A stretch of DNA of 63,773 nt, filler included, from Sphacelaria rigidula (taxonomy: Eukaryota): NCBI GenBank assembly GCA_964200075.2. It is 10 parts of 10 records of this genome, joined end to end, with 100 filler letters (N's around TTAATTAATTAA, not from the genome) between each part and the next. Parts side by side here need not be neighbours in the genome. Positions count along the whole stretch, not along the records: positions 57,487 to 63,773 come from CAXNAA020021006.1; 9 more parts are not named here. The stretch is one strand, 5' to 3'. A program made the position numbers and the translations under genes. The first letter of the stretch is position 1. The number at the start of each line of letters is the position of its first letter. This document shows positions 6,462 through 63,773 of the stretch, in pieces. The notes under the pieces are model-generated. The model ran no database searches, was not told where the DNA came from, and saw nothing but the letters and a program-made list of their open reading frames with translations.

Positions 6462-8762
6462 TTCTGGTTCTCAAGCCGAATGTTACGTCAACAGATTTTT
6501 GGCCGCGGATGTTCAGATTTTGAAATTATTCGTGTTACACCCATCTTATGGGTACGGATTATTCGAAATTTTGGGTGAATAATCCGCGGCCAAGATTCGG
6601 GGCCCAGGTCCCACAGATTTTTTGGCCAACTGGCGAGGGTCGGCAAGCAGATGCACACGGATTTTTGCGTTTTGGCCGGCAGACCGTCATAATGGGGTCA
6701 CGCCGCGTTTTTCTTTCATGTGCCGGCGTGCTGGTTGCGTCTTTGTGAGTGATCCTGTCGCGACCACAATCAACAAAACACGAAGCAACCACACGCGCCA
6801 CCCGACGCGCGATGGACCCCGCTTCGCGCGTACGGGACAACGACACGCCTTGCTCTTCGGTCTCCTGGCAAAAGCATTGCAGAGACGTCGAGAGAGGAGA
6901 CATGTGATGCGCACTGTCTCTGTCTGGCGGATGGTTCTGTGAGCTTTCGAGGAAGATGCCGAGGGGAGCATGGTCGCTTACTTACGTGCTCGAAAGAACC
7001 GGCACTGGTGTTAGTGGGGTGCTGATGACCTCTCTGCGGCAGTGACGCTGTATCACTACAGCACATCACAACAAACGAGATACCTGCGGGGCTATGAGCT
7101 GTTGAAACGCGCTACACATAAAACTCGAAACTCTGATGGAGGTATACAAATCAGAACAGTGTGGTATGAAAATATGTGTGATGTCATAAGATGGTTCCGG
7201 AACCCAAACTTGCCGCGGATTTATTTCACCAGGGTTCAAAAATCTGTGGGCGAAAAATCTGTTGCCATAACATCCGACTCAATCCTGAAAAGTCGACAAT
7301 AACAGTTTTGATGAACAAAACCCATTTTCGCGGCAGTGCTAACGCGAGTTTGTCGTCATAGTTCATGATTGTCGCATCACCCAAGGATTGAAGTTCGTGC
7401 TACGGATACGGTTAGGGTATGTTGCAATTTTCCCAAGGTTGTGCTTTTGTAGAGTGCAATGTTTTTCAAGGGTGTGTTGGGTCGGATATTTCCCGTATCT
7501 GAGTATTTTGGAAAATCGTACTCTTAGTACCCATCGTTGGGTAGATTGTTCACATTGTATTCAACAATGCCCAGGTATTGGGTAAGGTAATGCGATCGTA
7601 TCTAAGCTTACCCAATTTTTGGGTAAAAATTGGAGATCGGACTATCGCGACACGAAATTGGGGAGAGTAAATACCCTGGTATTTACCCGAGACAACACAC
7701 CCTTTGATATCTTGTATACCAGGGATATTACCCGGATATTACCCGGGTATTCGATCATACCCGGCAGTTTTGTGCGTTCTGTAAGCCTCTCATACCGACA
7801 CACGAGAGTCGTAAGTTCCGTAAGAAAATATCATACCCTGTCGAACATGCCTGTATTATACAGAACACAACGTCGCAACTTTCGGTTAGGGTATTCGCAG
7901 TTCCATGTTTTTGTCAGCCATGGAAAATTCTTGACAGGCGGACTCGTGTTAAACCGCCTCCTCTTTTCAAATACTTGTTGTACTCTTGGGTATTTTTTGT
8001 TCTTCACAAAATCGCGCATGAATCCGAAGTTGTTTCAACCCCTCATGGTATACCACGCTTTTTGTGCATAGAGCGGATAACCCGTGGTCCAAATGTTTTA
8101 GCACGATCAGCTTCTATTGCCTCTCTCGTATAATGTATACCGTGACTTTGGGGCAGACCCCAGTTTCGAGTAAGTTTTGCTGTCGGAAAGTCACCCAAAA
8201 AAATGATTTTTTTGTATCCCTTTATTATGGAACAACTACGGACTAACGCCATTCGATCGCCGTAACTGCCAACAGGCGGACCTGTCAAGCACTGCTTGAA
8301 CTAACCTACGTTACAGAGAATTTCGACTGATCGTAGTACTTGTTGATTGCTCCCCGGTGTATCATGTACTCTCCGTTTCGGGGCCCCCACTTTTAAGCAA
8401 ATGTTATATATTGCAAGCTACCCAAAAATCAAACTGCTGGCCCCGGACACCCTACATTTCCCCCGCCCCGCCCCTTCTCCCGCTCCCCTACCTTGCCGTG
8501 ATTATGGTGGTGCTGCGCTTTGCAGCACACGGGGGGACAGGCGGCCGATATGGAGGAGCAAAAGAACAAACATACGTGTTGTTTCGCGGTCGATGTCTTC
8601 GACGATGCCCAGGTGCGTTCCGTGGCACATACATACACTTATCCACCCCCCTGAAAATTCCGGAGTGTCATCCCCCATCTGTTGAATCGGCGCGCAATTT
8701 GTGTACTCTATGAATGGCTGTCAGATATATATATATATATATAGCTGTGTCGTCTAAACATG

Positions 8763-10090
8763 TACTGCAGAAGGCCTACGATTCCGTATACCGCACGCTC
8801 CTCTGGGAAGTGCTTGCGCGGCTCGGAGTCCCGCCGCAAATGATTACGATTATCCGTATGTTTCACGACGGCATGCGAGCTCGGGTACAGCTGGGTAGTG
8901 GAGAACTACCAGCGTGGTTCCACGTTTGCCAGGAACTCGGGCAAGGGTGCGTTTCGTCTACGCTGTTGTTCAACATCGTCGGCGCAGCCTTGGTCAACGT
9001 GATCGTCCAGCGGTTGGCAGCGGACGCAGCCATCGTCTCAGACTTGGTTTTCCTCGATGATGCGCCGAAGATGACGATGACAAACTTCTAAAAGAGACAC
9101 CGCTGGAGGGGGTACGGCGCGCGGTGTGGGCAATGCTTTGTGCGGATGACGCCGACGTAGTCTCGAGGTCTCCAGACGGCCTTGCTAGAACGATGGCCGT
9201 GGTAGTAGTCATCTACCAGGAGTTTGAATTGACGATATCGGAGAGAAAGACAGAAACCGCCCTGCGTCTTAAAGCCCAGCTATCCTTGAAAGTCCGACTG
9301 CTTGAAGCGGAGGTTGTGAAAGCTCTGTTACACGGATGCATCAGCGCGGCTGGTCAGCTGTATAAGCGGACGACCAAGTTTGCTCATCCTTGGTGCCGTC
9401 AACACAGTTAGGAAAATTTCCATCGCAATCAATCGCCGCATCAGCGCGGTGTGGGCACGTCTCGAAGAGTAAAGTTCCCAACTCTACGATCGACCTAACT
9501 AACGCCCAGCTATCCTTGAACGTCCGGTTGCTTGAAGCGGAGGTACAGTAGTAAAAGCTGTGTTGTACGGATGTGCCACATGGAAGTAACGTTCCCGAGG
9601 GCTTCGGCAGTCTGCGCACTGCTCATCACAAGCTTTTGCGACGAGTGGTTGGATCCCGTAGGAAAGATCGAACGGACTACATGACTCTTTCCTACGCAGC
9701 TGTGCTCGAGATGACCAACTGCAAACGCATCGAGGCGACTACCAGCAAGCATCATCTCTTGTTCGCGGGGGCCCTTGTCCGGCAGGATGAAAGACGCCTC
9801 CTTAAGCATATCATCCACGGACGGCTGTCCCCACAACGGCTCAAGAAGGCTAGCCGCCCCCCCAAACACTGGGGAACAAACTCCAGGAGAACCTATGTAA
9901 ACTTGGGACTTCCCCTCGCGAAGGAGCTCGACGTAAATGGATCGCCTACGACGCGGAGATTAACGACACACACGATTGGGTCACTGTGGCGGAGAATTTG
10001 AGCATATGTCATCTTGGAGTCAAGGAAGGGGCGAAAGCGTCTGAGGACACGTGGCGACGCGAAGACAAATGAGAATCGGACCGCCGTCAT
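8763..10090 (+). mobile_element. 5'-truncated, frameshifted RTE-clade LINE reverse transcriptase relic
   Basis: RT motifs across frames: LQKAYDSV.RTLLWEVLARLGVP..MI.IIRMFHDGM.ARV; QELGQGCVSSTLLFNI (QG..QG motif); MLCADD (decayed YADD); FELTISERKTE; then LSL.VRLLEAEV..LLYGC and HHKLLRRVVG. Multiple stops and frameshifts. The probable 3' UTR runs to ~10925. Confidence 0.9.
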
Positions 10091-10268: not shown

Positions 10269-10709
10269 AACACGGGATTTTACAAATTGGGGATGGATTT
10301 TTTATTGGGGATGAGAAATCCGGAGAATTCAATTTTCTTATCCACATCAAATCTTCGAAATATGGTTCCATTTCTTCACTTGCTGGTAGCTATTGACAAC
10401 CACTACACGCGATACAAATTTGGATCTCGATAACCGAAATGTTGGGGTCCCAGGTGAAAAACCAATTTTGGGGAATTTCGGCTATCTGATCGGATCATGT
10501 AAATCCCCCAAGATTGTTTCTGCACCTAGGACCCCAACATGTCGGTTATCAGGATCCAAATTGGTATGACGTGTAGTAGGTGTCATTAGCTACCAGTAGG
10601 TGAATAAGTAGAACTATATTTCGAAGATTTGGTATGGATACGAAAATTTTAATTCCCCGGGTTCTCATCCTCCTCAGAAAATCCTCCCCAATTTGTAAAA
10701 TCCCGTGTT
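10269..10709. mobile_element. Foldback MITE (~440 bp, ~210-bp arms) inserted in the LINE 3' region
   Basis: AACACGGGATTTTACAAATTGGGGA ... TCCCCAATTTGTAAAATCCCGTGTT; complementarity continues inward to a ~20-nt centre. Confidence 0.9.
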
Positions 10710-12887: not shown

Positions 12888-13215
12888 GTTGCGAAGACTT
12901 GAGTGCTTCGGTTCCGCAATGTAGCATTATACACGCTGATCCGCAAAACAAAGTGTGCATCCGGTAGCCATTTCTCATGCCGTCGTTGGGACTTGGGAGA
13001 TGAAATGTTACATGCCTACTGCTAAGGGAAAGCCCGAGGTCGTGTCTGCTTACGAACTCATCTCGGGCTTTCCCTCAGAAACACGCATGTGAAATTTCAC
13101 CCCCGAACTTCGAACAACGACGTTGGCAACGGCTACCGGCTGTATTCTCTCGTCGTTTGGCGCATCAGCGTGTATGATGATGGGTGACGGAATCAAGGCG
13201 CAAAAGTTCGTGCAG
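12888..13215. mobile_element. Degenerate foldback MITE
   Basis: Paired arms: ATACACGCTGAT/ATCAGCGTGTAT, CCGGTAGCC/GGCTACCGG, AGGGAAAGCCCGAG/CTCGGGCTTTCCCT around a ~23-nt loop. Confidence 0.8.
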
Positions 13216-16332: not shown

Positions 16333-17120
16333 GGGTTAACGGCGTTGGGCTACCAAATGTTCATGGTTGATATTACTTGATTTGAGTGTGTACAACGAGA
16401 ATCGGATCTTTGGTAGGGCTGACAGTCCTGTGTGCCCCTCGGGTGTGCAGAACGCGTTTTCTAGTGAATCGGCGCCACGGGCGTCGATTTTGGGTCTACC
16501 AAGGGAATGCTACAAACCACCCTTGCCCGAGGGTTCTCGGTATGCGTTGGGTTGGGGTTAGCCTGCTCCTTATAAGGGACGATAATAAAAATCTGGAAAA
16601 GTGCTTTTTTGGAGCTTTCACGTCGTTTTACGCCCCAAAAGAGAGCTAGGCGGACGTTGACACGTTGGAATGACTTGCTCTACTAGTTGAGGCGGTTCCA
16701 GGACATCTTCCCGTTTTCCGGTTGCCGCAGTTTTCATTTTGGCTGATCAAGAATTTTTGTCCCAAAACGGTGGAAAAAATAGTCGAAGTCCAGAGAAAAG
16801 CGGTGATTTTTTCTAGATCTGACCGTTTTTCACCGTTCTTCGACAAATATTCTTGTTTGGCCAAAATGAAAACTGCGGCCACCGGAAAACGGGAAGATGT
16901 CCTGGAACCGCCTCAACTATTAATAGTAGAGCAACTCATTCCAAGGCGTCAAACTCCGCCTAGCTCGCTTTTGGGGCGTAAAACGACGTAAAAGCTCCAA
17001 ACAGGCACTTTTCCATCTTTTTATTCTTGTCTATTAGAAGGAGCGGCCTTAGGGTTAGAGATAGCGATACTTGTAAAAATGTGCCAATCACGAACATTTG
17101 TAGCCCAACGCCGGTTAACC
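16333..17120. mobile_element. TIR element hosting a nested MITE
   Basis: GGTTAACGGCGTTGGGCTACCAAATGTTCATG vs CACGAACATTTGTAGCCCAACGCCGGTTAACC. The same terminus recurs at ~41476-41497. Confidence 0.75.
16561..17048. mobile_element. PIF/Harbinger (Tourist-like) foldback MITE
   Basis: TTA TSD on both sides (16558-16560, 17049-17051); ends GCCTGCTCC / GGAGCGGCC; ~230-bp arms. Related copy at 23211-23706. Confidence 0.88.
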
Positions 17121-19224: not shown

Positions 19225-19547
19225 TCCACCCCCGCGCGCGAGCCTTCTACCCTGCAACACTCCCACCTCGCCAGAGTCAGGGCCGAGGCTCCTAAGAGCA
19301 GGGCGGCGCGTGCACGGCGCCAGGTTGATAGGGGGTTTAGTGGGAGCATCCCCCATACTGCTTTGAGCCACCGCTCGAGGCGCCTTCCCCACATGACTGC
19401 CGCGAGGTGGTCTAGCCGAGCCATCGAGTAATCGGCACACGAACTCGCTTGCGGGGTAAGTGTTGTGTTGCGTTTCCTCCTTCCGTCAAGGAAGACAAAC
19501 AAAAAACTCGCCAGAGTCAAGACAACCAACTCGCTTAGCTCACTCAC

Positions 19548-20599
19548 CAGTAGGGACAGCTTGCCAGAATACATGGTACGTAGTGAAACGTCCACGCGGG
19601 CATTGCCAGCCCCCAGCCCTTGGCCACGAGGAGGAACGTGACAGCGACGTCGCCGAATACCCTGGAAAGACTCGTCAGCGCATCAGCCACCAAAACCTCG
19701 GCGAAGTGAACGTCCGTGGCTGGAAAGAATACCCCGGCCAGCGAGGTGAAGAACAGGGCCGTGTGCTCCCTGGAGAATGACGATCGGTGTAAAAACGACC
19801 AACGCCAAAAAAAGAATACACGCGCACGCGCGCGCGCATACACACATACGCACATTACGTACACGTCAGGGCAAAGTGAATTCAATATTTTCCCATGATG
19901 CTAAGTCGCCGTTAAGTCGCCGTTAGGTGTACTTTTGAGCCATGCCCCAGTACCCTCTGCCCCCACCCCCCCCCAAAATAAAAACTATCCCCAAAACTGT
20001 CACGAAGAAAATGGCCATACAGAGCATGATAGCTAGTTGCAGACTTCATGAATTTGGCCGATACGCTCCCGAACATGAGAGTTCCCAGCTGCTCGGTGTG
20101 CTCGACTTTCGTCATTTTCGGTTCACATGCACATTTTGCTCACCCCCCCCACGTGACCCGCCGAACGCATCACGGCGCTCCGCGCTTGGTGACTAATTGC
20201 GAGCTCAATCCGGCGAAAAAACCGGGGTGCTCCGTCCCGGCTTGGCAGGGATACGAGGTCAACGGCCATATGACCACGCCATGCAAGACCAGGAGCACCC
20301 CCCCCTGCGCGTCCCTCCAAAACAGGGTTTACTATGTAGCAGATAACCCCACACTGCTCACCTGATGGACGGCGCCTGAAGTGGCACCAGTAGTGCACCT
20401 CCAAGGATAAAGTAAAACCCTCCCACCGCTACCGTAGGGGGTACCATGAGCATCTGGGACCCGTATACACACGCCAACAGCACTCCTAGAAACCCCGCGG
20501 CGGCCGAAACCACCTGTCTCCAGGTGGGAGGCGTGGGTACTCGTGGCGGCTTTTCTTTACCGGCCACGTCATCCTCCGGAGCAGTCGCTACACGAGGTC
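19548..20599 (-). CDS. EXS-domain (ERD1/XPR1/PHO1 family) membrane protein, two internal exons (20599-20362, 19769-19548)
   Basis: Phase-2 junction AG|G gives ...GFYFILGGALLVPLQAPSIREHTALFFTSLAGVFFPATDVHFAEVLVADALTSLSRVFGD...PCILASCPYW, matching the EXS motif V.F.D..LAD.LTS...F.D...P.....PYW. Donors GTGAGC and GTGAGT. Confidence 0.85.
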
Positions 20600-23210: not shown

Positions 23211-23706
23211 GGTCGCTCCTTATGGCAGACAAGAATAAAAATCTGGACAAGTGTACCTTTTCCAAGATCCTGCGCCGTGCTACGCCGTAAAAGAGAGCTA
23301 TGATGGGCGAATTTTGACAGCTTGGAATGAATGTCTTTGCTGTACTCGTTGCGACGGTTCCAGCACACCCGCGTGTTTTCCCGGTAGCCGCAGTTTTTTT
23401 TTGTATCCAACTTGCATTTTTCTCGAAGACCGGTCGAGTGGAGACAAATCTCCGAAAGTGTTCCTGAACTTGACCGGTCTCCGAGAAAACTGCAAGTTCG
23501 ATACAAGAAAAAAAACTGCGGCTACCGGGAAAACACGCGGGTGTGCTGGAACCGTCGCAACGAGTACAGCAAAGACATTCATTCGAACGCGTCAAAATCC
23601 GCCCATCATAGCTCTCTTTCACGGCGTAAAATGACGTACATTTAAGCTCCAAAAAGGCACTTCTCCAGATATAGATATATATTGTTGTCTGCCACAGGGA
23701 GCGGCC
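23211..23706. mobile_element. PIF/Harbinger-like foldback MITE (same family as 16561-17048)
   Basis: GGTCGCTCC...GGAGCGGCC ends; long near-perfect arms (AATGTCTTTGCTGTACTCGTTGCGACGGTTCCAGCACACCCGCGTGTTTTCCCGGTAGCCGCAG and its complement). Confidence 0.88.
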
Positions 23707-23912: not shown

Positions 23913-25105
23913 CAGGCTGGGCCAGCCTACAAGCGGGTTTGTACTTTGGAGCGAATTCGCAATTTTTATTAGAGAGTTGGAAAATGAAAATTGGTATGGA
24001 CAATCAACAGGGCATGAAGAAAAGCTGTCTGTTAGGTCCCAACGATTTTTTTTTCGTGAGTTAGGGGCATTTTACTGAAACCTCATCCTGATTTTTGCCC
24101 TTAATTCACGGAAAAAAAAATCGTTGGGACCTCACAGACAGCTTTTCTTCATGCACTGTTGATTGTCCATACCAAATTTCACTTTCCAACTCCAAGAAGA
24201 AAATTACGAATTTACATTTGAAAAACCGAGGCGGCGGAAATTCGGAACAGTATTTCCCAGGCCGTTTATTGGCCCACATTTGGTGTTTGTGGGTTGAAAC
24301 TTTGTGCGGGACCTTGCTAGGTCGTGATGAACCAACAAGATGCGTGAGGTTGGGTTTTATTTTATTTTTTCACTGGTTGAGGGCATTTTAGTATGGTAAC
24401 GATGATTTTTTTACGAGAACATTCGAACCTCTCACGAAAAAAAAAAATGAAGGCCCATTTTTATTTTCTACTCAGCATACCTCTGTCGTTCTCCATGCCA
24501 AGTTTCAAATCACAATTCTAAAAATTGAGCTGAAAATTTGAGTTCAGGCCCAAGAGCAATGTTCATTTTTCCTCAAAACCCCCCTAAAAACACGAGAAAA
24601 AACGAGAAAAAACGGGAAAAGTCGAGTTTTTTTTCGTTATGCACTAGCGGTTTTTCATACCAAATTTTATAGCACAACTCTCAAAAATTGAGACGCGATA
24701 TCCAGATTTAGGTCATCTAGTGCCTCTGCTCGTAATATACTGATTTTAGTATTGAAACTTATGTGCGCCATTTCTCGAGATAGATGGCGAATGAGGTGAA
24801 AGTGAGGGTATCTATCGTCTCCCCGTGCTCCAGGGAAGGTACACACCAAAGATCGTCATCATCCGCTTGATCGATCGTTCGGGGTTTCATATAGATTTTA
24901 ATGTGGACGCTATCTCCGCCAGGTATAGGAAAAACTATGCATGGGGTTTACTCGACGAGGGAAAATTGGCTCAGATTTTTGAGCAGATGGGCACCTTCCC
25001 CTTGATCAGACGATTAATACGATATGCGGATCACGGCCCAACTCGTCTGTGTCGTTGAGATATCGCTTTTAGAGCTTAAATCTGTTTTTAGGCTGGCCCA
25101 GCCTG
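23913..25105. mobile_element. Tc1/mariner-like non-autonomous element with an internal foldback (23954-24212)
   Basis: Perfect 17-bp TIR CAGGCTGGGCCAGCCTA / TAGGCTGGCCCAGCCTG; TA on the left flank, TG on the right; ~120-bp inverted arms inside. Confidence 0.7.
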
Positions 25106-27835: not shown

Positions 27836-28472
27836 GTAGCCCACCTGTAGGGAAACAGAAGCGAACATTTTGACAGCCGTGGTTGGTCAGAATGGTCACT
27901 CCGCTCCCCTCGGGCCTCGTTCGTGGCTCAAAATTTTCCGCGAGAAACTTCCAAACGCACATGGTTGACACGGTGAGCTTCTTGGCTGTCCTGAAACAGG
28001 CCCTCACCCCAGTGTCAAGAACCAACCCCCTGCTCCCTGCAAACCGTCGGATGTCCCGGGACTGTCAGCCGGTGGAAATTTTCCGAGGAGACGTTTGCTG
28101 TCTAAGGGTCAACTGTTATACTTCGTACAGTAAAGCGAGCGTCGCCTCGGAGCATTTTTACGGGCTGACAGTATGGAGACATCCGGAGGTTTCCAGTGAG
28201 CGGGGCGGGTGGTTTTTCGGGGGGGGGGGGTACTTATCTGTTGCTTGCCTAGTCGTATTTGACCACTGACCACGCATCCCTTTCGAGACGAAGCACTGGG
28301 GAAGAGGGCTGTCCGCAGAGCAGCCGGGAAGCTCACGAAGTCAACCATGTGCGTTTGGAAGTTTCCCGCGGAAGATTCTAAGCAAGGGACGAGACCCGAG
28401 AGGCGCGGAATGACCGTTCTGGCCAATCACGGCCGTCAAAATAGGCACGCAGTTCCCCCACAGGTGGATTAC
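27836..28472. mobile_element. Foldback MITE (~640 bp) with a poly-G repeat head inserted in the right arm (28219-28273)
   Basis: GTAGCCCACCTGT / ACAGGTGGATTAC ends; arms pair throughout (e.g. GAAACTTCCAAACGCACATGGTTGAC / GTCAACCATGTGCGTTTGGAAGTTTC). Confidence 0.85.
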
Positions 28473-35232: not shown

Positions 35233-35721
35233 AAGAAGGCGATTCTTACGGTGCGTATTTTTGTGGGCTTGTATTCACCACTTTTGATATATTCGATACA
35301 CTGTTTTGGCCGCAGAACAGAGAACATCGCCATCACAAGTCTTCGGCACTTTGCATCGCCCCACCGGAACTGGTCTAGCCCACGTTTTTTATTCGATCGA
35401 CTCCTGCGTTTCAAGAATGGCTTCTTCGACACAATTGCGGTAGGAAAAGAAATGACGTATCTGCTCGTACTTTACCGACCTGCAGACACCGTTTGTTGTT
35501 TTCCTGCCGTGTTTCTGCCAAGAGGCTGTTCTCGAAATATCGGAGTCGAGTGAATCGGAGAAGTGGGCTGGACCCCTCCCGGCGATGCAAAGTGTCGAAG
35601 ACGTGTGGTGGCGATATTCTCTGTTAGCTGCCATAAATCGTATCCAAGTATCATAGAAGTGGATCATGCGAGCACAAAACGATATCAACCGTAAAAAACG
35701 ACCGTAGATTGACGCCTTCTT
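35233..35721. mobile_element. Foldback MITE (~490 bp)
   Basis: AAGAAGGCG / CGCCTTCTT ends; internal pairs GTCTTCGGCACTTTGCATCGCC / GGCGATGCAAAGTGTCGAAGAC and GGTAGGAAAA / TTTTCCTGCC. Confidence 0.8.
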
Positions 35722-49904: not shown

Positions 49905-50730
49905 TCAGTGTGTCGGATCTCCATTCAGCAAAAGCTGTTGAGAAAAATTCATCATTTAGCCCATGTGCATGGATCGGGGGGCAAAAGGATGAATTATTTT
50001 CAACATGTTTTTCTGCTTGTCGGATCCCATATGCTGATAACGGTGCAGTATGCGGGATATGCCCAGCTGACGCTGTTCGTAATAAATATATTTTCCCTCA
50101 TTCTCCGGATGAAAAGGAGGGCAAAGTGAAGATTTATTTCGAGCTTCATTTTTTGCTGTTCAAATTCCAAATCTGCGAGTGCGCATGGGATTTGCTCAGC
50201 AGAAGAAGCTGTACGAAGTAGATCCTTTTCTCGCCCATTTATATTGGGCGAAAAGATTATATGTTTCGTACAGCTTCCTCTGCTGTTCGAAATATATCAT
50301 TTTTTTGCCCAAATATATTGGGGGAAAAAGGATCTGTTTTGAATAGCTTCTCCTGCTGTCCGAGATAAATTCTTTCTTGCCCGATTTGTCCCCCAATCTC
50401 CGGATGAAAAGGAGGGCAAAGTGAAGATTCATTTCGAGCTTCTTTTGCTGTTCAAATTCCAAATCTGCGAGTGTGCATGGGATTTGCGCAGCAGAAGAAG
50501 CTGTTCGAAGTAAATCCTTTTCTCGCCCATTTATATTGGGCGAAAAAATGATCTATTTCGTACAGCTTCCTCTGCTGTTCGAAATATATCCTTTTTTTGC
50601 CCAAATATATTGGGGGAAAAAAGGATCTGTTTTGAATAGCTTCTCCTGCTGTCCGAGACAATTTTTTTCTTGATTCAAATCGAGCAACAAAGATTTTCTC
50701 TTGGACAGCAGGAGGAGCTATTTCAAAAAA
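49905..50730. repeat. Array of palindromic modules including a ~295-bp tandem duplication
   Basis: 50102-50396 is repeated at 50397-50670; each copy contains stacked hairpins. Confidence 0.85.
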
Positions 50731-51701: not shown

Positions 51702-52083
51702 GAGCGATATAGTAAGAGATACGGTGGGCATGGGCAAACATGCATAGAACAAGCTCTTTAACAAGGCTTGTGCTTTGTAGGGTATACCCGGAGGTTGGGG
51801 CGTTTTGGTCGACATACTAAACCATATCCGAAAGTTTATCAAACATTCCAGTATGGTTGGGCGAGGTTTCGAGCCTCACTCCGAACACTCCGATAGGGTC
51901 CGGAAGGACATTTACCGATAATATTCCTCTTTTGTTGCTTTTGTAAATACTGCATGCATAATTTCAGCTGGTATACCCTACAGAGCTCAACCTTGTTTTT
52001 TTGTACTGATACAATGTAGGAGAAACTGTTGCTACTTCCAGGGCATATATCGTTACACGTCACAAGGCATCGTTACACGTCAC

Positions 52084-52144
52084 AAGTTAGGCGGCGTCGG
52101 ACCAGGCTAGTACTACGGTGGGGGACGGGAAGGGAAGCCCTGGT
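52084..52144 (+). pseudogene. 5S rRNA 3'-half fragment (internal control region)
   Basis: AAGTTAGGCGGCGTCGGACCAGGCTAGTACTACGGTGGGGGAC...GGGAAGCCCTGGT follows the eukaryotic 5S pattern AAGTTAAGC...GGCC...TAGTACT..GGTGGG.GACC...TGGGAA..CC.GGTGCTGT. Confidence 0.85.
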
Positions 52145-52160
52145 TTGACTTGACTTTGAA

Positions 52161-52219
52161 GAAACAGCGCCGGGGCTCCCCACGTGGTCCCCCACCATAG
52201 AACTAGCCTGGCCCGACGC
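52161..52219 (-). pseudogene. 5S rRNA 3'-half fragment, inverted
   Basis: Reverse complement GCGTCGGGCCAGGCTAGTTCTATGGTGGGGGACCACGTGGGGAGCCCCGGCGCTGTTTC reaches the 5S 3' end. Confidence 0.85.
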
Positions 52220-53051
52220 TTCAGGTGTGACGTGTAACGATAACTTGTGACGTGTAACGATAACTTGTGACGTGTAACGATAAGGGCCCTGATCCTTTTA
52301 TACGGTACTTACTTTGCCCGTACCCACCGGGTGCGGGAGACTGGTGACGTTGGGGCTTCGCTCGCCTTGTTTTCCGCTTTTCGGCGGAAAAACCAAGAGA
52401 GATCTGAATACTTAATTGTTCGTTTTCGGATAGGATAGGTAGGGGTGTTTTTTGGACAATGATAGTGGCGGCTTGAGGTGGAGTCATTTGTTTTGGTGAA
52501 AGGGAACACAAAGTGTAAGACGAACGTGAAACCGCTAGATGGATGGATGAGATGCCTTCAAAATCAGCATTTTTTTTGTTTTTGTCAAATTCGTCACGTC
52601 ACTCATTCCTTACAGTCTGGCGGCTATCGAACAAGGCATCGAAAATCTCGATTTTTTCCGAGGTGCGGGACCCGATTTTTGAACTCACTGTTTCGCACTG
52701 GATTGAGAAGCTCACACGAAAACGTCAATCATTGGTTATTTTTGTAAGGCAAACTAACTTTTGAGCTCCTCTGCTCGGTCTGTCCTTTGAATCTTCTAGC
52801 GTTTTTACACTGATGACTTGCGCTTGATTCTGTTGGTGTCGTTGTCCATGCTACTGTTTACTCCTATCATTTTCTATTTCTCGTTTGTTGTGAAATTTTC
52901 CCTTTTCTTTATTTATTCAACCTCCTTCTCTTCTTTTCTTTTTGTAATTTTGTTTTTCTCTTCTTTGTTCTATTTCTTATCTCTCATTTTTTTTCTCTCT
53001 TTTTTTTTGTGTTTATTTCCTGTGTTTTTGGGGTGGCATGGGGGATTACAG

Positions 53052-57486: not shown

Positions 57487-58987
57487 TGTCCATCTTCTTC
57501 CTCGTCCTTTCGACGACTGGTATATCTCTTTCTTCTTTCTGGCAGGTCTAGCACTTTACATGTAGTAAGGCCCATTGTTATCGTCACTATTTTTTCGGGG
57601 TTCTCCGAAATTGTCGGGATTTGAAAGTGCTGCGTTGCATTCCCGAAGTTTCGAACTTCTTCGAAAACGAAGCTGCAGATAAGGATTAAGCCGCTTCATT
57701 CTCGGAGAGGTTTTAACGCAAAGTCGGAGATCTGAAAAATAAAGGTTGTCGATACTGATAGGCCTGTCTCAGTTGGTGTTACAGTACAGTATGTCATTCT
57801 GGTCATGACTGTACAGTGCGATACATTCGGCATGCGGGTACTGTAATTTTTGAGCGGATTAAAGAAAACAGGACTGCAACCGCGAAATTGGGGGCATAGC
57901 TTCCAAAGCACTGATAGGGCTTAGAGGGTGTGCTTCCAGGCCTTGACCGCCGACACCACGGTGTCAGCCCTGTGTCGTTGTGCTGCCTCCAGCTAGCACC
58001 ATTGCCTACAGGAATCATGTAGGCGGAGATTGAGTTGTCGATGCAAGAATGATGACCAAAAAACGTTTCGCCAGTGGCTGTCGTCCTCTTCTCTACGTCG
58101 TGCGATGCAGTGGCTCCTTAACGACTAAGTGAAGGGGGACCCGGGAGCTCGTCATGAAAAAATGCAAGAATAGTTTTCGCGCCATACAGCAATGTGCCCA
58201 AGTGTGCTTGCTTCCGTATGGCGTGGTTGCAACCCAGAAATGGCTGTGACGGCTGGCTCTCACGCCTTCGCCAAAACGGTACAGTATTGTGTAGTGTATG
58301 TGATGTAGTACGGCACAGCAAAACAGTGTAGTACAGTACATTGTTGTACAGTACAGTGCAGCACATGATAATACGTATCAGTCACAGCAGTGTCACAAGT
58401 GCCATGTTCCACACATGTTGTACTATACATCACTCTGCATGTATTGTTATCAGGCCGTTGTGCGAGCCTACATATAACAGAATACTAATATACTCCCTGG
58501 TCTAATGTGCATACCTTATCCTACCTCCCAAGCTGTTTATCGGACATACCAACTTCGTCGTCTCCGACAGACACTACAAATCTGTCTTCGTGACGCCTGT
58601 ACCAATTTGACACACCCAGCAGGAGACAAGCACCTGGATTTTCGAGGTCTACGGGAACCTCATATTCTACGCCGACGGACACGACTCGCTTGAGGGTTCA
58701 CCGGTGAGATATTGTATCTATCGAAGTTGATTGCTGACAGAGGAGGATAGTGGCGGCCTCTTGAAAATAGCTGAACATGACAGAAGACACGACTACTGCA
58801 CAGCTGGGTAGACCGTAACGACTGAAAACTCCCCAGTGTGTACGGGCTTGTTCACGCTCATCTTCTAGAAATCATTCATCCGAAGATCTCAACCCGTCTT
58901 TTCGGAGTGAGACTTCAAAAAATTGCCCATAAATACTGTGGGTCATGACAAACCTTTGGAGGATCAGCGTCATTCTATTATTGTTTT

Positions 58988-59057
58988 TCGCCGGTTATCT
59001 GGGGTCCCAGGGTCCTGGCGGATCACATGTCCTTCTGGGACCCCAGATAACCGGCGA
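58988..59057. repeat. Perfect 23-bp hairpin, 24-nt loop
   Basis: TCGCCGGTTATCTGGGGTCCCAG / CTGGGACCCCAGATAACCGGCGA. Confidence 0.9.
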
Positions 59058-59269
59058 GAAAGGAATGATCGAAACACCTCACTCTGTGACGATACAAAAA
59101 ATAAAAACCATATCGCAGCAAACATTTATCCATCTATCTATTTATTTATTAAATAACTTCATAGATAAACCTTATAATAATGAATCAATGAATTAATCAA
59201 ATATTGTTCGAGGATGGATGGTTGGATGGTTGGTTGGATTTTGTTTCTTGGACTAGGGATGGACAATAT

Positions 59270-59716
59270 CGTAATGACCCACTGTTGATCCGTACAAATT
59301 CCATACCGGTGATTCCCGCCATAGAGACGGAAGGATGAAGGTCGACTTTCCTCAGGGGTGTCCGTCAGAATCACCCTCCGTGCTTGGTTGTCCGGGTCAT
59401 GAAGAAGCGGATCCAAAAACGATGGAGAAGATGAAGCGCGACCCGTAAGAAGCAGCACAAGCGGGAACGCTGGAAGCAAGGAGTCGTTGCTTTCCCGCTT
59501 GCGTTGCTTCTTACAATCGCGCTTCATCTTCTCCATCGTTTTTTTATCCACTTCTTCATGACCTCAACAAGCAAGCACTGAGAATCATCTAGCATGATGA
59601 GAGCTGTTTCTGCCGGACACCCGCGAGGAGGGTCGACGTCCGTCCGTCCGTTCCCATGGCGAGAATCCCCGGGTTAAACTATCGAAACTCGTACACGTGG
59701 ACAATGAGTTATTACG
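59270..59716. ncRNA. Gene-derived long inverted repeat; candidate hairpin-RNA / proto-miRNA locus
   Basis: Near-perfect core stem 59395-59470 / 59489-59563 with looser outer arms; both arms are homologous to the intron/exon junction at ~62530-62700. The inverted repeat is seen directly; expression is not shown. Confidence 0.5.
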
Positions 59717-61615
59717 AAAGTCTCCGAGGTTGAGGTCTTGCCTACTTTTTGTTCTTCCGCCGGTTTTCTGGAGCTCCAGGGTCCTTGCAGATTGCATGCC
59801 CTCCCGGTACCCCCCGTAGCCGTCGAAAAAAACAGAAGACCCCAACATGGGGAAGGCGTATAATGACCCATGCGGTAGTATACGTGTGCAAACATCGAGA
59901 GTCTAACTCCAAAAAGGAAGGCGCGAGGTTTTCCGTTTTTGTGTGACAAAGATTAGGTAAGCTTGAAAAATACAAAATTGTAAGTAGTCGATTTTAGTCT
60001 CAAAAGCGACCTCTCGGGTACGATTTATTGTAGCGTGAAAAAACGACTACATGGCAAAATCTTTTCGGGTCAGGCAACGAAACGTGGGACAAATATTCCT
60101 TGGGCTTCCCAGAGGCGTGTACATATTTATTTTTCGCTCTGAGGCATTCTGTAACGGTTGTTGGGGTTTTGCATGTCGGGACCCCGGGAGTCGACAGCGG
60201 GGAAACTTTGAAATAAATGTAAGCAACACTTTTTTTTTTTTCATTTCAAGCACGAATGCAGACTGTTTGCCAAGTTTGAGGGCAGTCACAGCTTTCCTAC
60301 GACATATATGAGATAAAGCGCCAGGAGGCGTTGTGGGTCTTAGGTGATAATCGTCAGTGGAAATCCGAAATTACCGAAATAGCACGGTTTGGAGTATGAT
60401 TTCGATGCCGTGGTAACCGTTTTTAATTCTATGCTTTTCGTGAGCTTCCCGAGCTGATTGCGAATACCACGACTTGGAGCATGTTGAGATTGGGTAGAAA
60501 GTGTGTGTATTGGTACTCATTTTCATTTCAGAACATTTTGGAAAGCGCTGTTCGGTCGAGCTACCTTTGTGTCCTCAGCGCAACCGCTATGGCCTCGAAG
60601 AAATATCCGTCTGTATCACCCTCTTCTTCAGTAAAACCATGGCGGTCAGTATGGTACGACGTATTCGGTCATTAGGCGGTTGTTGCAAAAGTCATTCGGT
60701 GATGATGGAATTTGGGGCGATGATGAGCGTAAGCAAGCCAGAAGGTGATAACTGCACGGGGTGGAGTTGGTAGCCGTCCACTGCCCGCGGGTCATGAAGG
60801 AGAAATTCCTGAGTTGTTCGTTCCCTCGGAGGACTGTAGCCTGTTTTACCTCTAGCCGCAAAGGTTTGTGTGTGTTTGTTGCAGAATTGGTGTCACTGTT
60901 TTCTGATTCAGGCAGCAAATCAAGTGTACTCCATGCGGAGTGCACAATCCGTCTGTTCACGGCAACGGTCAGGCTTTTCCTTGCGTCGTGCCTCTTTTGA
61001 CCTCGCGATACGTTATGTCCCGGTCCGATATGACCTCCTACCAAAAATGGGCATGAAATATTGCTCCTTCGTTTATGCACACGGAGCGCCGAGTTACCGC
61101 TTAGTTATCAATAAAACGCAGAAAGGAGGGTAGCGTTTCCGTGTGTGTGACATGAACGACTAACGATATACTGCAGTGCAAGCAAGGAAGAGCTACGCTA
61201 AAACCTAGACCAGTGTTTTACATCGCACCGTGCCACATGACTGCGGTTTTGGCAGCGAGATTAGGGTCGTAATTTTCGGTAGGTGTCCGTGGGCTCGGTG
61301 TGGGGGGCGGGGAAGGGGCTAGAATTTGGGTCGGAGTGCTTCAAAACGAGTAGACAAAGAAAGATACCGCATGTTCAGCGGAAAATTCAGCTACCGCCAC
61401 AAAGCATTTTTCTTCTCCAAAGCGAGCCCGCTTTTTCTCACCCGATCAGAATATTCAAGATGCTTGAGTACTACAGTACAAAGCGGTACTGCTTGCGTGC
61501 CATACGCCAATCTCTTCAACATGAGCGTACAAGCTCCCCCGTGCGCCAAAAAGTGCAAGACGTGATGATCTTGCTCCGACTGACTCACACTGACCAACCC
61601 TTACCGGAATCTCAG

Positions 61616-63662
61616 GAAGACGAGTACGGCATGATCAAGCAGCACCCCGGCTGCAAGGTCATTTCGGAGGGTCAGATAACCTACACCAAGAGCGGAATCA
61701 AGGCTGCGGCAGGCGTGCCCAAAGCCGGGGACGAAGACGACACCGCCGCATCCCACGCCGAAGCGACACCGTCACCGGCCACACCGGTGCCCGCTGACAC
61801 CACCGTCACTGTGCCCGTCACCGTCACCGCTGACACCACCGTCACCGTGCCCGGGGTGAGGTGGGACAGCCGGTGGGCGAGGAGGAGCCAGGCTGGGCGC
61901 AAAGCCGAGCCTGTCGAGACGCCCCCGCTGGACGAGAGCCCGACTATTGCGGCAGATTCTTCCCTCGAGCACCCATGGTTCGGTGCTCTGCTTACGGAGA
62001 GCAGGGAAAGCCTCAAGGTTGGGCAAGCGCTGACGTCTCCGGCCTCGCTGCACGCATCCTTCTTCGGCACTTTGGGTTTGGCGTTGGATGGTTCGGTCAT
62101 CCACAAGAGACCCGCTGCTGGGGAGGAGCTCAATGCGGGGATCAAGGAAGCGATGGTGCAGAAGCTCTGCCCCCTGTGCTCGTGGGACGTGGACATCGGA
62201 GGGACGGCCACTGCGACGGAGTTGGCCGAGGTGATCGGCAAGAGCGATATCGCTGCGGAGTCGGTGAGCTTGCTTACCACTAAGACCAAGGACTTCGCGA
62301 AGGTGAGGTCTCGGAGGTGTTGTGGCGGATTCTCACAGCCGTGGACTGCGTGTTGCACGTGTACGCGCCTCTCTTTTGGATCTGTTGTGCTTGTGCGGGG
62401 CAGGTGTCTTGCATGCCCATTTGTGCGGCCATCGTCTGTCGTGTCTCTGTGCATGCATCCAACACAGGGAAATGTTGGGCGTTGGAGGTCACCATAGAAC
62501 ACACAATTTGGTGCACCTGGCTTGAAGCGTGCGGTTCTCGCTGTGGAGACGGACGTGTGGACCTCAGATTCCTCTGCTGGTGTCCACTAGAAACAACACC
62601 CATTACTTTGTTTGATCCTCCGTGCTTACTTGTTCAGGTCATGAAGAAGCGTCGGATACAGATGTACAAGCTGGAGCGCGCCCGCAAGAAGCGGCGTGAC
62701 GTAAACACGACCCTCGAGGAGGCGCAGATGCAAGAGGCTGATGCACGGATGTTGGTGAAAGACTTCACGAGCACGCTGAGAATCACGGACAGAGGCTACG
62801 TGGTGAGTGGGCGCACTGTGCAGAGGAGCAATACAGTTCGGTTTCGTTCGTGTGTATTCATGCCTAAGCCTTGATAGGAACGCTCGGGTATTCGTGGGTG
62901 CACAGCCGGGGAGAGATGATGCGTTGGCCTCATACCATGAGACGACGGACTCGTGCCGCGGAAAGGAAGGGGTCAGAAGTGAGACAAAACAGGAAAGGGC
63001 GGCGCCAACCATGTCAGAAACATGTGTTGCTCGACTGCACATTCCCTGAGCATTATGCTGTGTTACTCACGGTGTCTTTTTTCAGGGTATTTACTGCGCT
63101 GTGGCGAGAGTCATCATCCAAGCGTTGCAGATTGTTGTGGGCTACGACAGAGTCCAGTGGGATACTGTCTAGAAATAAACAGTAACCAATCGTCGAAGAT
63201 GGTTATTTCGTGGTGAAGATAAGATAAGATATGGTCTGCTCGAGTGTGACAGACAGTGATCACACGTCGCGCAGATCACCTCCCTGTGAGCCCCGACTAG
63301 CCTTGTGCTAAAACCGCACACAATACAGTTGCCCAGGCCATCCCCAATCAAGGAGGGCCTCAGTTAACCCCGCCATGTGTCAGTAGCCATCGCAGTATCT
63401 GATGTGCGACTGTGTGTTATCGGCCGGGTATGCCTTGAATGTCCAGGAGGCGTTCGTCGACGGCGTTAAGGTGATTTCGGAATCTGGCCGAAAGTACGAG
63501 GTGAAGCCGCAGAAAAAGAAGTGGTTCACGAACCCCTTGAAGGCCTTGAAGGCAGCCTTCGCCAGGAGGAAGAAATCGAATGAGTACGAGCTTCATGTCG
63601 TGGAAGATGGCATCGAGATCAGGCTCGGGAAGGAGTTGGTGTGGGCGATTCGCGTGGCGTGA
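61616..63662 (+). CDS. Orphan spliced gene (exons 61616-62302, 62638-62802, then 63086-63172 with stop and/or 63447-63662 with stop)
   Basis: CAG acceptors, GTGAGG and GTGAGT donors, all phase 0, strong GC3 bias. P/T/V-rich linker and a basic coiled segment VMKKRRIQMYKLERARKKRRD. No family recognised. Confidence 0.65.
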
Positions 63663-63773
63663 AGGCCTTCTTGATGCGTGAAGCGGAAGAACAGAAGAAG
63701 AGCGGGGGGAATATGAAGACACGAAAAATGGCATCACAAAAAATGAACGAAAATTCGGTGGGGGAAGGGGGGG

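Follow-up and report, generated by a model that had tools for sequence, protein, structure and literature searches.

A fold-back duplication of a gene-family splice junction forms a long hairpin, possibly a source of small RNAs, in the brown alga Sphacelaria rigidula

We show that the hairpin at positions 59270-59716 of the DNA analysed here (a stretch of 63,773 nt from Sphacelaria rigidula, hereafter the window) arose long ago by fold-back duplication of the junction between intron 1 and exon 2 in a brown-algal gene family, and that it comes from a subtype other than the one represented by the neighbouring gene. Judging from its sequence, the hairpin may also be a processed source of hairpin RNA, a reading to which we assign a probability of about 45%. 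Processing into small RNAs at some level appears somewhat more likely than an inert locus, and a role of the hairpin in silencing is plausible but unproven.

Structure and copy number of the hairpin

A repeat search of the window resolves 59270-59716 into a long imperfect inverted repeat of 447 nt with three collinear arm segments: 59306-59373 with 59605-59672 (68 nt, 78% complementary), 59376-59441 with 59517-59582 (66 nt, 88%), and 59445-59470 with 59489-59514 (26 nt, 88%), the last two lying 18 nt apart on either side of a loop at 59471-59488. A perfect 27-bp run, AAAAACGATGGAGAAGATGAAGCGCGA, pairs 59415-59441 with 59517-59543. Folded as RNA over the 447 nt, the plus strand reaches -258.9 kcal/mol with 176 pairs (85 G-C, 82 A-U and 9 G-U) and the minus strand -273.4 kcal/mol with 183 pairs, 16 of which are G-U; the z-scores are -20.2 and -20.3, respectively, and 0 of 100 shuffled sequences folded equally well. 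Repeat search and folding, at roughly 180 pairs, agree with the first-pass annotation, which had described arms pairing over about 200 nt with a 27-bp perfect run and a loop of about 18 nt; folding of both strands, which it had proposed as a check, yields a stable structure on plus and minus alike, with z about -20. A long-inverted-repeat siRNA locus is recognised by a stem of at least 100 bp, a short loop and stability as RNA, and the hairpin has 176-183 pairs in its stable folds and a loop of 18 nt.

The short-read contigs compared with the window are those of Logan, which are based on 31-letter words, so that 21-nt reads cannot appear among them. One DNA contig (run X1, record 2) covers 59242-62311 with zero differences. 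Another (record 8 of X4, a run from another study than X1 that is labelled 'algae metagenome') spans 59242-61847 with other letters at 45 of 2606 positions and 17 gaps, and hence is about 2% diverged. At a likeness threshold of 80%, the depth of X1 is 62-70 in the three bins of the hairpin versus 59 for the spanning contig; in the flanking repeats it is about 1500. A BLAST search with the region found no other copy of the hairpin within the window, the matches being the hairpin itself and the gene 3 kb downstream. The hairpin is single-copy, real DNA: contigs from two studies span it at single-copy depth, and it is thus neither an assembly artefact nor a multi-copy MITE.

The surroundings of the hairpin contain a palindromic element of 76 nt (27-nt arms, 96% complementary) that stands as a direct repeat around it, with copies 75% alike. 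The X1 bin of the copy at 58986-59061 lies at about 25 times the single-copy depth. Many contigs join 59041-59057 to 60139-60637, which indicates that these are pieces of a multi-copy element that is differently arranged elsewhere in the genome.

Long hairpins are common in this DNA. Nine other long inverted repeats of 185-576 nt occur in the 64-kb window (10285-10694, 12958-13142, 16560-17049, 23281-23628, 23954-24212, 27867-28442, 35316-35625, 50197-50727 and 52039-52291), with folding energies of -0.47 to -0.81 kcal/mol per nt as against -0.58 for the hairpin described here, giving a density of about one long hairpin per 6-7 kb. This lowers the prior that any one of them is a selected gene, and a hairpin alone is therefore weak evidence of function. 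Two of the nine, 16560-17049 and 23281-23628, are about 67% alike and make up a foldback repeat family. Across the 128 ORFs of the window, the only Pfam matches are a reverse-transcriptase fragment (RVT_1, 8714-9088, plus strand, 27 bits, which is below the cut-off) and one exon of a protein in the EXS family (19547-19900, minus strand, 37 bits). The nine pairs of 44-base N runs around TTAATTAATT that recur every 6387 bases between 6289 and 57486 are masks and not biology.

A scan of metagenomes with a 20-mer from the hairpin core returned 85 loci (L001-L085), with no BLAST match to the hairpin or the gene among them at E 1e-5. We rejected these loci as relatives: a single multi-copy element with no relation to the hairpin (...LVEKARVMEKMKREVEGQ...) accounts for most of them, and the others are chance matches at scattered places. 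The element, found in a few metagenomes, carries the core 20-mer by coincidence; it reads ...LSIKDFAALVEKARVMEKMKREVEGQRPQQ..., which looks like a retroelement gag, and is unrelated to the hairpin.

Origin of the arms

Both arms resemble a stretch of the neighbouring gene at 62535-62695 (plus strand) that takes in the 3' terminal portion of intron 1 together with the opening 58 nt of exon 2. By BLAST, the left arm (59375-59456) is 78% identical to 62617-62695 and the right arm (59506-59665) is 70% identical to 62692-62535. In the outer parts, where the likeness is to the intron, the right arm can be aligned with the final ~104 nt of the intron at a local score of 51, which was reached by 0 of 1000 shuffles, and the left arm at a score of 24, reached by 2 of 1000. 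The match of both arms to the intron/exon junction of the neighbour, first noticed by inspection of the sequence, is thus borne out by BLAST, by alignment of the arms with the gene and by the shuffle-tested intron alignment. Because intron and exon occur together in the arms, it was genomic DNA that was duplicated and not an mRNA. As in plant proto-miRNA genes, the similarity of both arms to a protein-coding gene is extended.

The two arms have decayed differently. On the left, the intron-like part (59306-59395) has lost 20 nt that the right arm and the gene retain, and its acceptor AG has become GG; on the right, the intron-like part (59563-59672, minus strand) keeps the acceptor AG. The sense, exon-2-like part of the left arm (59396-59470) reads VMKKRIQK, then two extra bases, MEKMKRD, one extra base and RKKQHKRERWKQ. 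Its counterpart in the right arm (59489-59562), which is antisense on the plus strand, reads in reverse complement VMKKWIKK, two extra bases and MEKMKRDCKKQRKRESNDS. With two extra bases ahead of MEKMKRD in both arms, neither arm is usable as an exon.

In the exon-like part, the arms agree with each other against the gene at 16 sites, the other two patterns being found at 6 and 1. The earlier observation that the arms share changes absent from the gene holds for these 16 sites; the changes are not novelties, however, but the family-typical sequence of the homologue P0003, a 129-amino-acid 'unnamed protein product' of Sphacelaria rigidula (Phaeophyceae). The arms encode MEKMKRD.KKQ.KR, as does this homologue, whereas the neighbour has MYKLERARKKRR. 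Peptide identity to P0003 is 12/14 for the right arm and 14/19 for the left; to the neighbour's exon 2 it is 6/12 and 6/11, respectively. Since the arms match the P0003 type better than the neighbour, the hairpin descends from a copy of the paralogue type, and its descent from a very old state of the neighbour itself is less likely. The duplication copied about 130 nt of intron and about 85 nt of exon 2 from a family member of the 'QKMEKMKRD' subtype and not from the present neighbour.

The neighbouring gene and its family

One contig of the run X6 (record 27) joins 61992-62300, 62636-62801 and 63446-63758, and as it joins exons, X6 holds RNA and exon 2 of the gene is 62638-62802, with a true splice acceptor. 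The gene (plus strand) has a large exon at 61616-62302, seen in records 26 and 27 of X6; exon 2, of 55 codons and of the MYKLERA subtype; and a last coding exon at 63447-63662, 69% identical to P0003, which among the named relatives of the gene is the best match. A candidate last exon at 63086-63172 was ruled out, the RNA contig using 63447 onwards. No Pfam family was found for the gene's exons or for the ORFs in 57806-63773, the large exon had no match at 0.9 or more in the protein atlas, and tblastn found no further copies of the gene's exons within the window. Short tandem repeats at 61738-61853, within the large exon, code for TVTVP-like repeats.

Upstream of the large exon, the RNA contigs point to a further exon. 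Record 26 of X6 (574 nt, depth 18.4) begins exactly at the AG acceptor at 61615, and 207 nt of it are placed and 367 nt unplaced. Mean depth in the X6 bin 58550-58759 is 7.18, a value that none of the listed pieces explains and that equals 82 nt at a depth of 18.4. In this bin lies an open stretch of 84 nt between AG and GT, 58620-58703 (plus strand, phase 0), which is in phase with the exon starting at 61616. From this depth arithmetic, in which no joint is displayed, we infer that 58620-58703 is an upstream exon of the neighbouring gene. The hairpin, about 1.9 kb upstream of the large exon, thus probably lies inside the intron 58704-61615 (2.9 kb) of an expressed gene, on the gene's strand. 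Low-depth RNA contigs of X6 occur on either side of it (58187-58545 and 59877-60083); the lack of a contig over 59180-59809 in this tiny, RNA-like run says nothing either way about transcription of the hairpin, and the same holds for the sequencing runs listed as containing the hairpin, among which none is recorded as RNA.

The region of the last exon, 63380-63773, has about four times the single-copy DNA depth. Its RNA depth is 67-89 versus 18 for the gene's own contig, and there are RNA contigs that run off at 63566 and at 63660. The C-terminal domain encoded here seems to be common to other members of the family whose expression is stronger.

The first-pass annotation had taken the neighbour for an orphan gene. 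Protein searches do not uphold this, for they find relatives in brown algae: two for the large exon (P0001, 57% identical, and P0002, 43%) and 15 proteins in a full phmmer search with P0003. A scan of metagenomes with the family profile gave 202 pattern matches and no confirmed relatives. The relatives that cover exon 2 are of two types. P0003, P0006, P0012 and P0013 have ...QKMEKMKRDRRKQRKR... or close variants, and P0020 has MKERRKKMYKLDRALRQRRKR..., which resembles the neighbour's VMKKRRIQMYKLERARKKRR. The presence of the neighbour's form in P0020, from another genome, shows that this form is an old subtype. Paralogues are present in the same genome as the hairpin: records 3 and 5 of X1, contigs of single-copy depth, are about 85-89% identical to 61529-62311 and 62704-63299, and the X1 bins of the last exon, exon 3, are at about four times the single-copy depth.

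Record 3 of X1 also contains a 144-nt piece on the opposite strand, two letters off the window's 61621-61764, that sits between the paralogue's versions of 61529-61794 and 61838-62311 (about 87-89% alike). Either the family has undergone a second inverted duplication or the contig is a chimera formed at the tandem repeat 61738-61853.

Pairing of the core and change in a relative

The two arms are identical at 65/73 positions (89%) where they resemble the exon and at 70/96 (73%) where they resemble the intron (Fisher p = 0.011). The claim that the exon-derived core is better paired than the intron-derived part is therefore confirmed, and uniform divergence of the two parts, which had been named as what would speak against a small-RNA locus, is not what the alignment gives. 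When sites are sorted by which two of the three sequences agree (left and right arm, right arm and gene, left arm and gene), the counts are 20, 14 and 8 in the intron-like part, where the three sequences form nearly a star, and 16, 1 and 6 in the core. A better-paired core may result from selection on double-stranded RNA or from homogenisation of the arms at the DNA level near the tip of the palindrome, and these counts agree equally well with either.

Compared with the window, X4 differs within the hairpin at no fewer than nine listed sites (59320, 59354, 59427, 59436, 59515, 59519, 59523, 59550 and 59710). At least six of these (3.6%) are in the 167-nt core, namely 59427, 59436, 59515, 59519, 59523 and 59550, to be set beside the 45 of 2606 for the whole contig. 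At least four lie inside the perfect 27-bp run and give A.C mismatches in plus-strand RNA. The window has the older state at 59436, 59519 and 59523, as judged against the other arm and the gene, so the changes at these sites arose on the line of X4. The changes in the core argue against constraint on a particular small-RNA sequence.

The eight variable paired sites listed are all transitions, and in seven cases the state that breaks Watson-Crick pairing is G.U on the minus strand and A.C on the plus strand. Among the mismatches between the arms, 12 are G.U on the minus strand, 6 are G.U on the plus strand and 13 are transversions (p = 0.24); three sites are counted in both sets, that of the arm mismatches and that of the sites variable in X4. 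This is a weak hint that minus-strand RNA would be the strand that matters, if any does; it may be due to chance, and it runs contrary to an intronic RNA of the plus strand.

Alternative explanations

Inverted duplications can arise as assembly errors, and this general fact is all that would suggest a chimeric palindrome at this locus. Artefactual palindromes have identical arms, whereas those of the hairpin differ by 11-27%, which excludes a palindrome made by the assembly; moreover, independent short-read contigs from two studies traverse the hairpin together with its flanks, so that the probability left for an artefact is negligible and we regard that reading as refuted. A transposable element, either a MITE or a foldback element, of which one half had inserted into the neighbour's intron as well and become part of its exon, would account for the related foldback repeats elsewhere in the window (16560-17049 and 23281-23628, about 67% alike) and for the two copies of the palindromic 76-nt repeat that flank the hairpin (58986-59061 and 59755-59830). 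Many copies in the genome are the mark of a MITE. The hairpin is instead at single-copy depth (62-70 versus 59, at the 80% likeness threshold) and has no second copy in the window; nor is a target-site duplication visible by eye at 59270 or 59716. The exon-like part also codes for a motif that is conserved in family proteins of other brown algae, which makes the exon the source and not an insertion. We thus consider a transposon origin very improbable.

The account that competes most directly with a processed hairpin RNA is that of an inert relic, in which a template switch during repair or replication produced a fold-back duplication that has since decayed and is either untranscribed or degraded with the intron, yielding no small RNAs of consequence, the centre having been homogenised by arm-to-arm conversion or quasi-palindrome correction of the DNA and without selection on RNA. 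We hold both the inert duplication and its homogenised centre to be a serious possibility, if short of an even chance. In X4 the core has diverged faster than the flanking DNA, and changes interrupt the perfect run; the same 2-nt frameshift is found in both arms, as arm-to-arm conversion would give; the star-like pattern of the outer part (20, 14, 8) against that of the core (16, 1, 6) is what recent conversion of the core would produce; and the nine further long inverted repeats of the window suggest a genome that makes or tolerates hairpins readily. An inert relic does not, however, lead one to expect that arm identity drops close to the boundary between exon and intron (the difference is significant, p = 0.011), or that a repeat this old, with an arm divergence of 11-27% compared with about 2% between the window and X4, is still intact in both lineages. 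Should the hairpin lie within an intron of an expressed gene, transcription would also follow regardless of selection. A true miRNA gene, from whose core a single discrete miRNA/miRNA* duplex would be cut precisely as in young plant MIRNA genes, would agree with the shape of the hairpin, its core being better paired than its base, and with a match, below threshold, to models of plant MIR hairpins (MIR847, 46 bits, E = 1.3e-07). A stem of about 200 bp is nevertheless much longer than that of a typical miRNA precursor. The MIR847 score of 46 bits compares with a gathering score of 184, and 0 of the 6 Rfam matches listed at E up to 1 reach theirs. Core 14-mers are absent from the miRNA supplementary files searched for Ectocarpus (three of the four files of PMC4513859) and Saccharina (one file). 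The perfect run, furthermore, has at least four changes in a relative only 2% diverged, as opposed to the constraint on brown-algal miRNA loci described in the available portion of PMC5381526. A precise miRNA gene is accordingly improbable.

Targeting and a possible role in silencing

The first-pass annotation had raised a linked gene/silencer module as a possibility, and one aimed at the neighbour is not supported. When all 762 21-mers of the hairpin (both strands) were compared with the neighbour's spliced mRNA, none had fewer than 5 mismatches, the best having 5 (15 of 762). Matches with one or two mismatches are confined to the neighbour's pre-mRNA, where they span the junction of intron and exon. 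The complementarity of a 21-mer to its target mRNA that is expected of a miRNA is thus lacking, a result that applies to the neighbour only. A paralogue as the better target, also raised in that annotation, fits the P0003-type peptides of the arms (12/14 and 14/19). As the conserved MEKMKRD motif is encoded in the core, paralogues of the MEKMKRD type are plausible candidate targets. The silencing interpretation as a whole therefore survives in part: the inverted duplication of family DNA and the better-paired core stand, and a module directed against the neighbour, given 21-mers with 5 or more mismatches, is not supported.

Under the reading that we prefer, that of a processed hairpin RNA, the hairpin would be co-transcribed with the neighbour's pre-mRNA, provided that it is intronic; a place in the intron of an expressed gene would imply transcription with the pre-mRNA whether or not the hairpin is selected. 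The stem of about 200 bp, with a near-perfect centre of 90 bp, would then be a substrate for Dicer and yield heterogeneous siRNAs, as at a hairpin-RNA or proto-miRNA locus. The right arm would supply siRNAs antisense to exon 2 as it stands in MEKMKRD-type paralogues, and not in the neighbour. We make no claim that the hairpin has a function maintained by selection. The fullest version of this scenario, in which a hairpin derived from exon 2 of a sister gene resides in a host intron and the host pre-mRNA gives rise to siRNAs that hold down the MEKMKRD-type paralogues, is in our judgement unlikely.

If true, the scenario would provide the first brown-algal small-RNA locus born by inverted duplication of its target, so that the plant-type route to new miRNAs would also run in a lineage with independently invented miRNAs, and the expression of one paralogue would be coupled to the silencing of others. 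If the hairpin is inert, it constitutes a clean, dated case of a splice junction duplicated by fold-back in a genome rich in hairpins, and a warning that gene-derived hairpins are not silencers per se. A hairpin derived from a gene would make the coding-gene route to miRNAs testable in brown algae.

Comparison with known systems

Brown algae have Dicer and Argonaute and evolved miRNAs independently. A literature search on hairpin siRNA loci of brown algae returned no brown-algal paper among the matches listed. Plant proto-miRNA genes and the hpRNA loci of Drosophila, which give endo-siRNAs, are the closest known kinds, and by analogy the hairpin would work like them if transcribed, although it is not a proven member of either. 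According to a model of 2004, plant miRNA genes are reportedly born by inverted duplication of their target genes, as with MIR161 and MIR163. The hairpin shares with such genes arms whose likeness to a protein-coding gene family extends well past 21 nt, a content of intron and exon that reflects duplication at the level of DNA, and imperfect arms with a better-paired part; it differs from them in its longer stem, in its brown-algal lineage, in being known from DNA alone and in that its nearest family member is a poor target.

With the hpRNA loci of Drosophila and the long-inverted-repeat loci of plants, the hairpin has in common a long inverted repeat, a short loop and derivation from a gene family, and we would predict heterogeneous siRNAs acting in trans on the parental family here too. 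The difference is that the hairpin is probably intronic in a paralogue and not a free-standing transcription unit. The siRNA loci of this type in plants are collected in LIRBase (PMC8728187, in the portion available).

Neutral fold-back, or palindromic, segmental duplication and quasi-palindrome correction are known mechanisms as well. They share with the hairpin the symmetric breakpoints in mid-exon, the short spacer, the frameshift common to the arms and the homogenised centre; a break in identity at the exon boundary is not predicted by them, a point that rests on few sites.

The miRNA loci of brown algae offer a third comparison. In Ectocarpus, as reported in the accessible text of PMC4513859, 75% of miRNA loci sit within protein-coding genes, for the most part inside introns and on the strand of the host, and the genome has many hairpin regions scattered throughout, which matches the density of hairpins in the window. 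The likely intronic position of our hairpin on the host strand, in a hairpin-rich genome, is thus shared with most Ectocarpus loci (same excerpt of PMC4513859). In that excerpt, from the one known systematic survey of where brown-algal miRNAs come from, zero Ectocarpus miRNAs derive from protein-coding genes or transposons and random genomic hairpins are concluded to be their source, so that those loci, unlike the hairpin, are without likeness to coding genes. The loci of Saccharina and Ectocarpus also evolve under constraint, as far as the part of PMC5381526 at hand describes them, whereas the core of the hairpin has changed at no fewer than 6 of 167 positions in a relative about 2% diverged.
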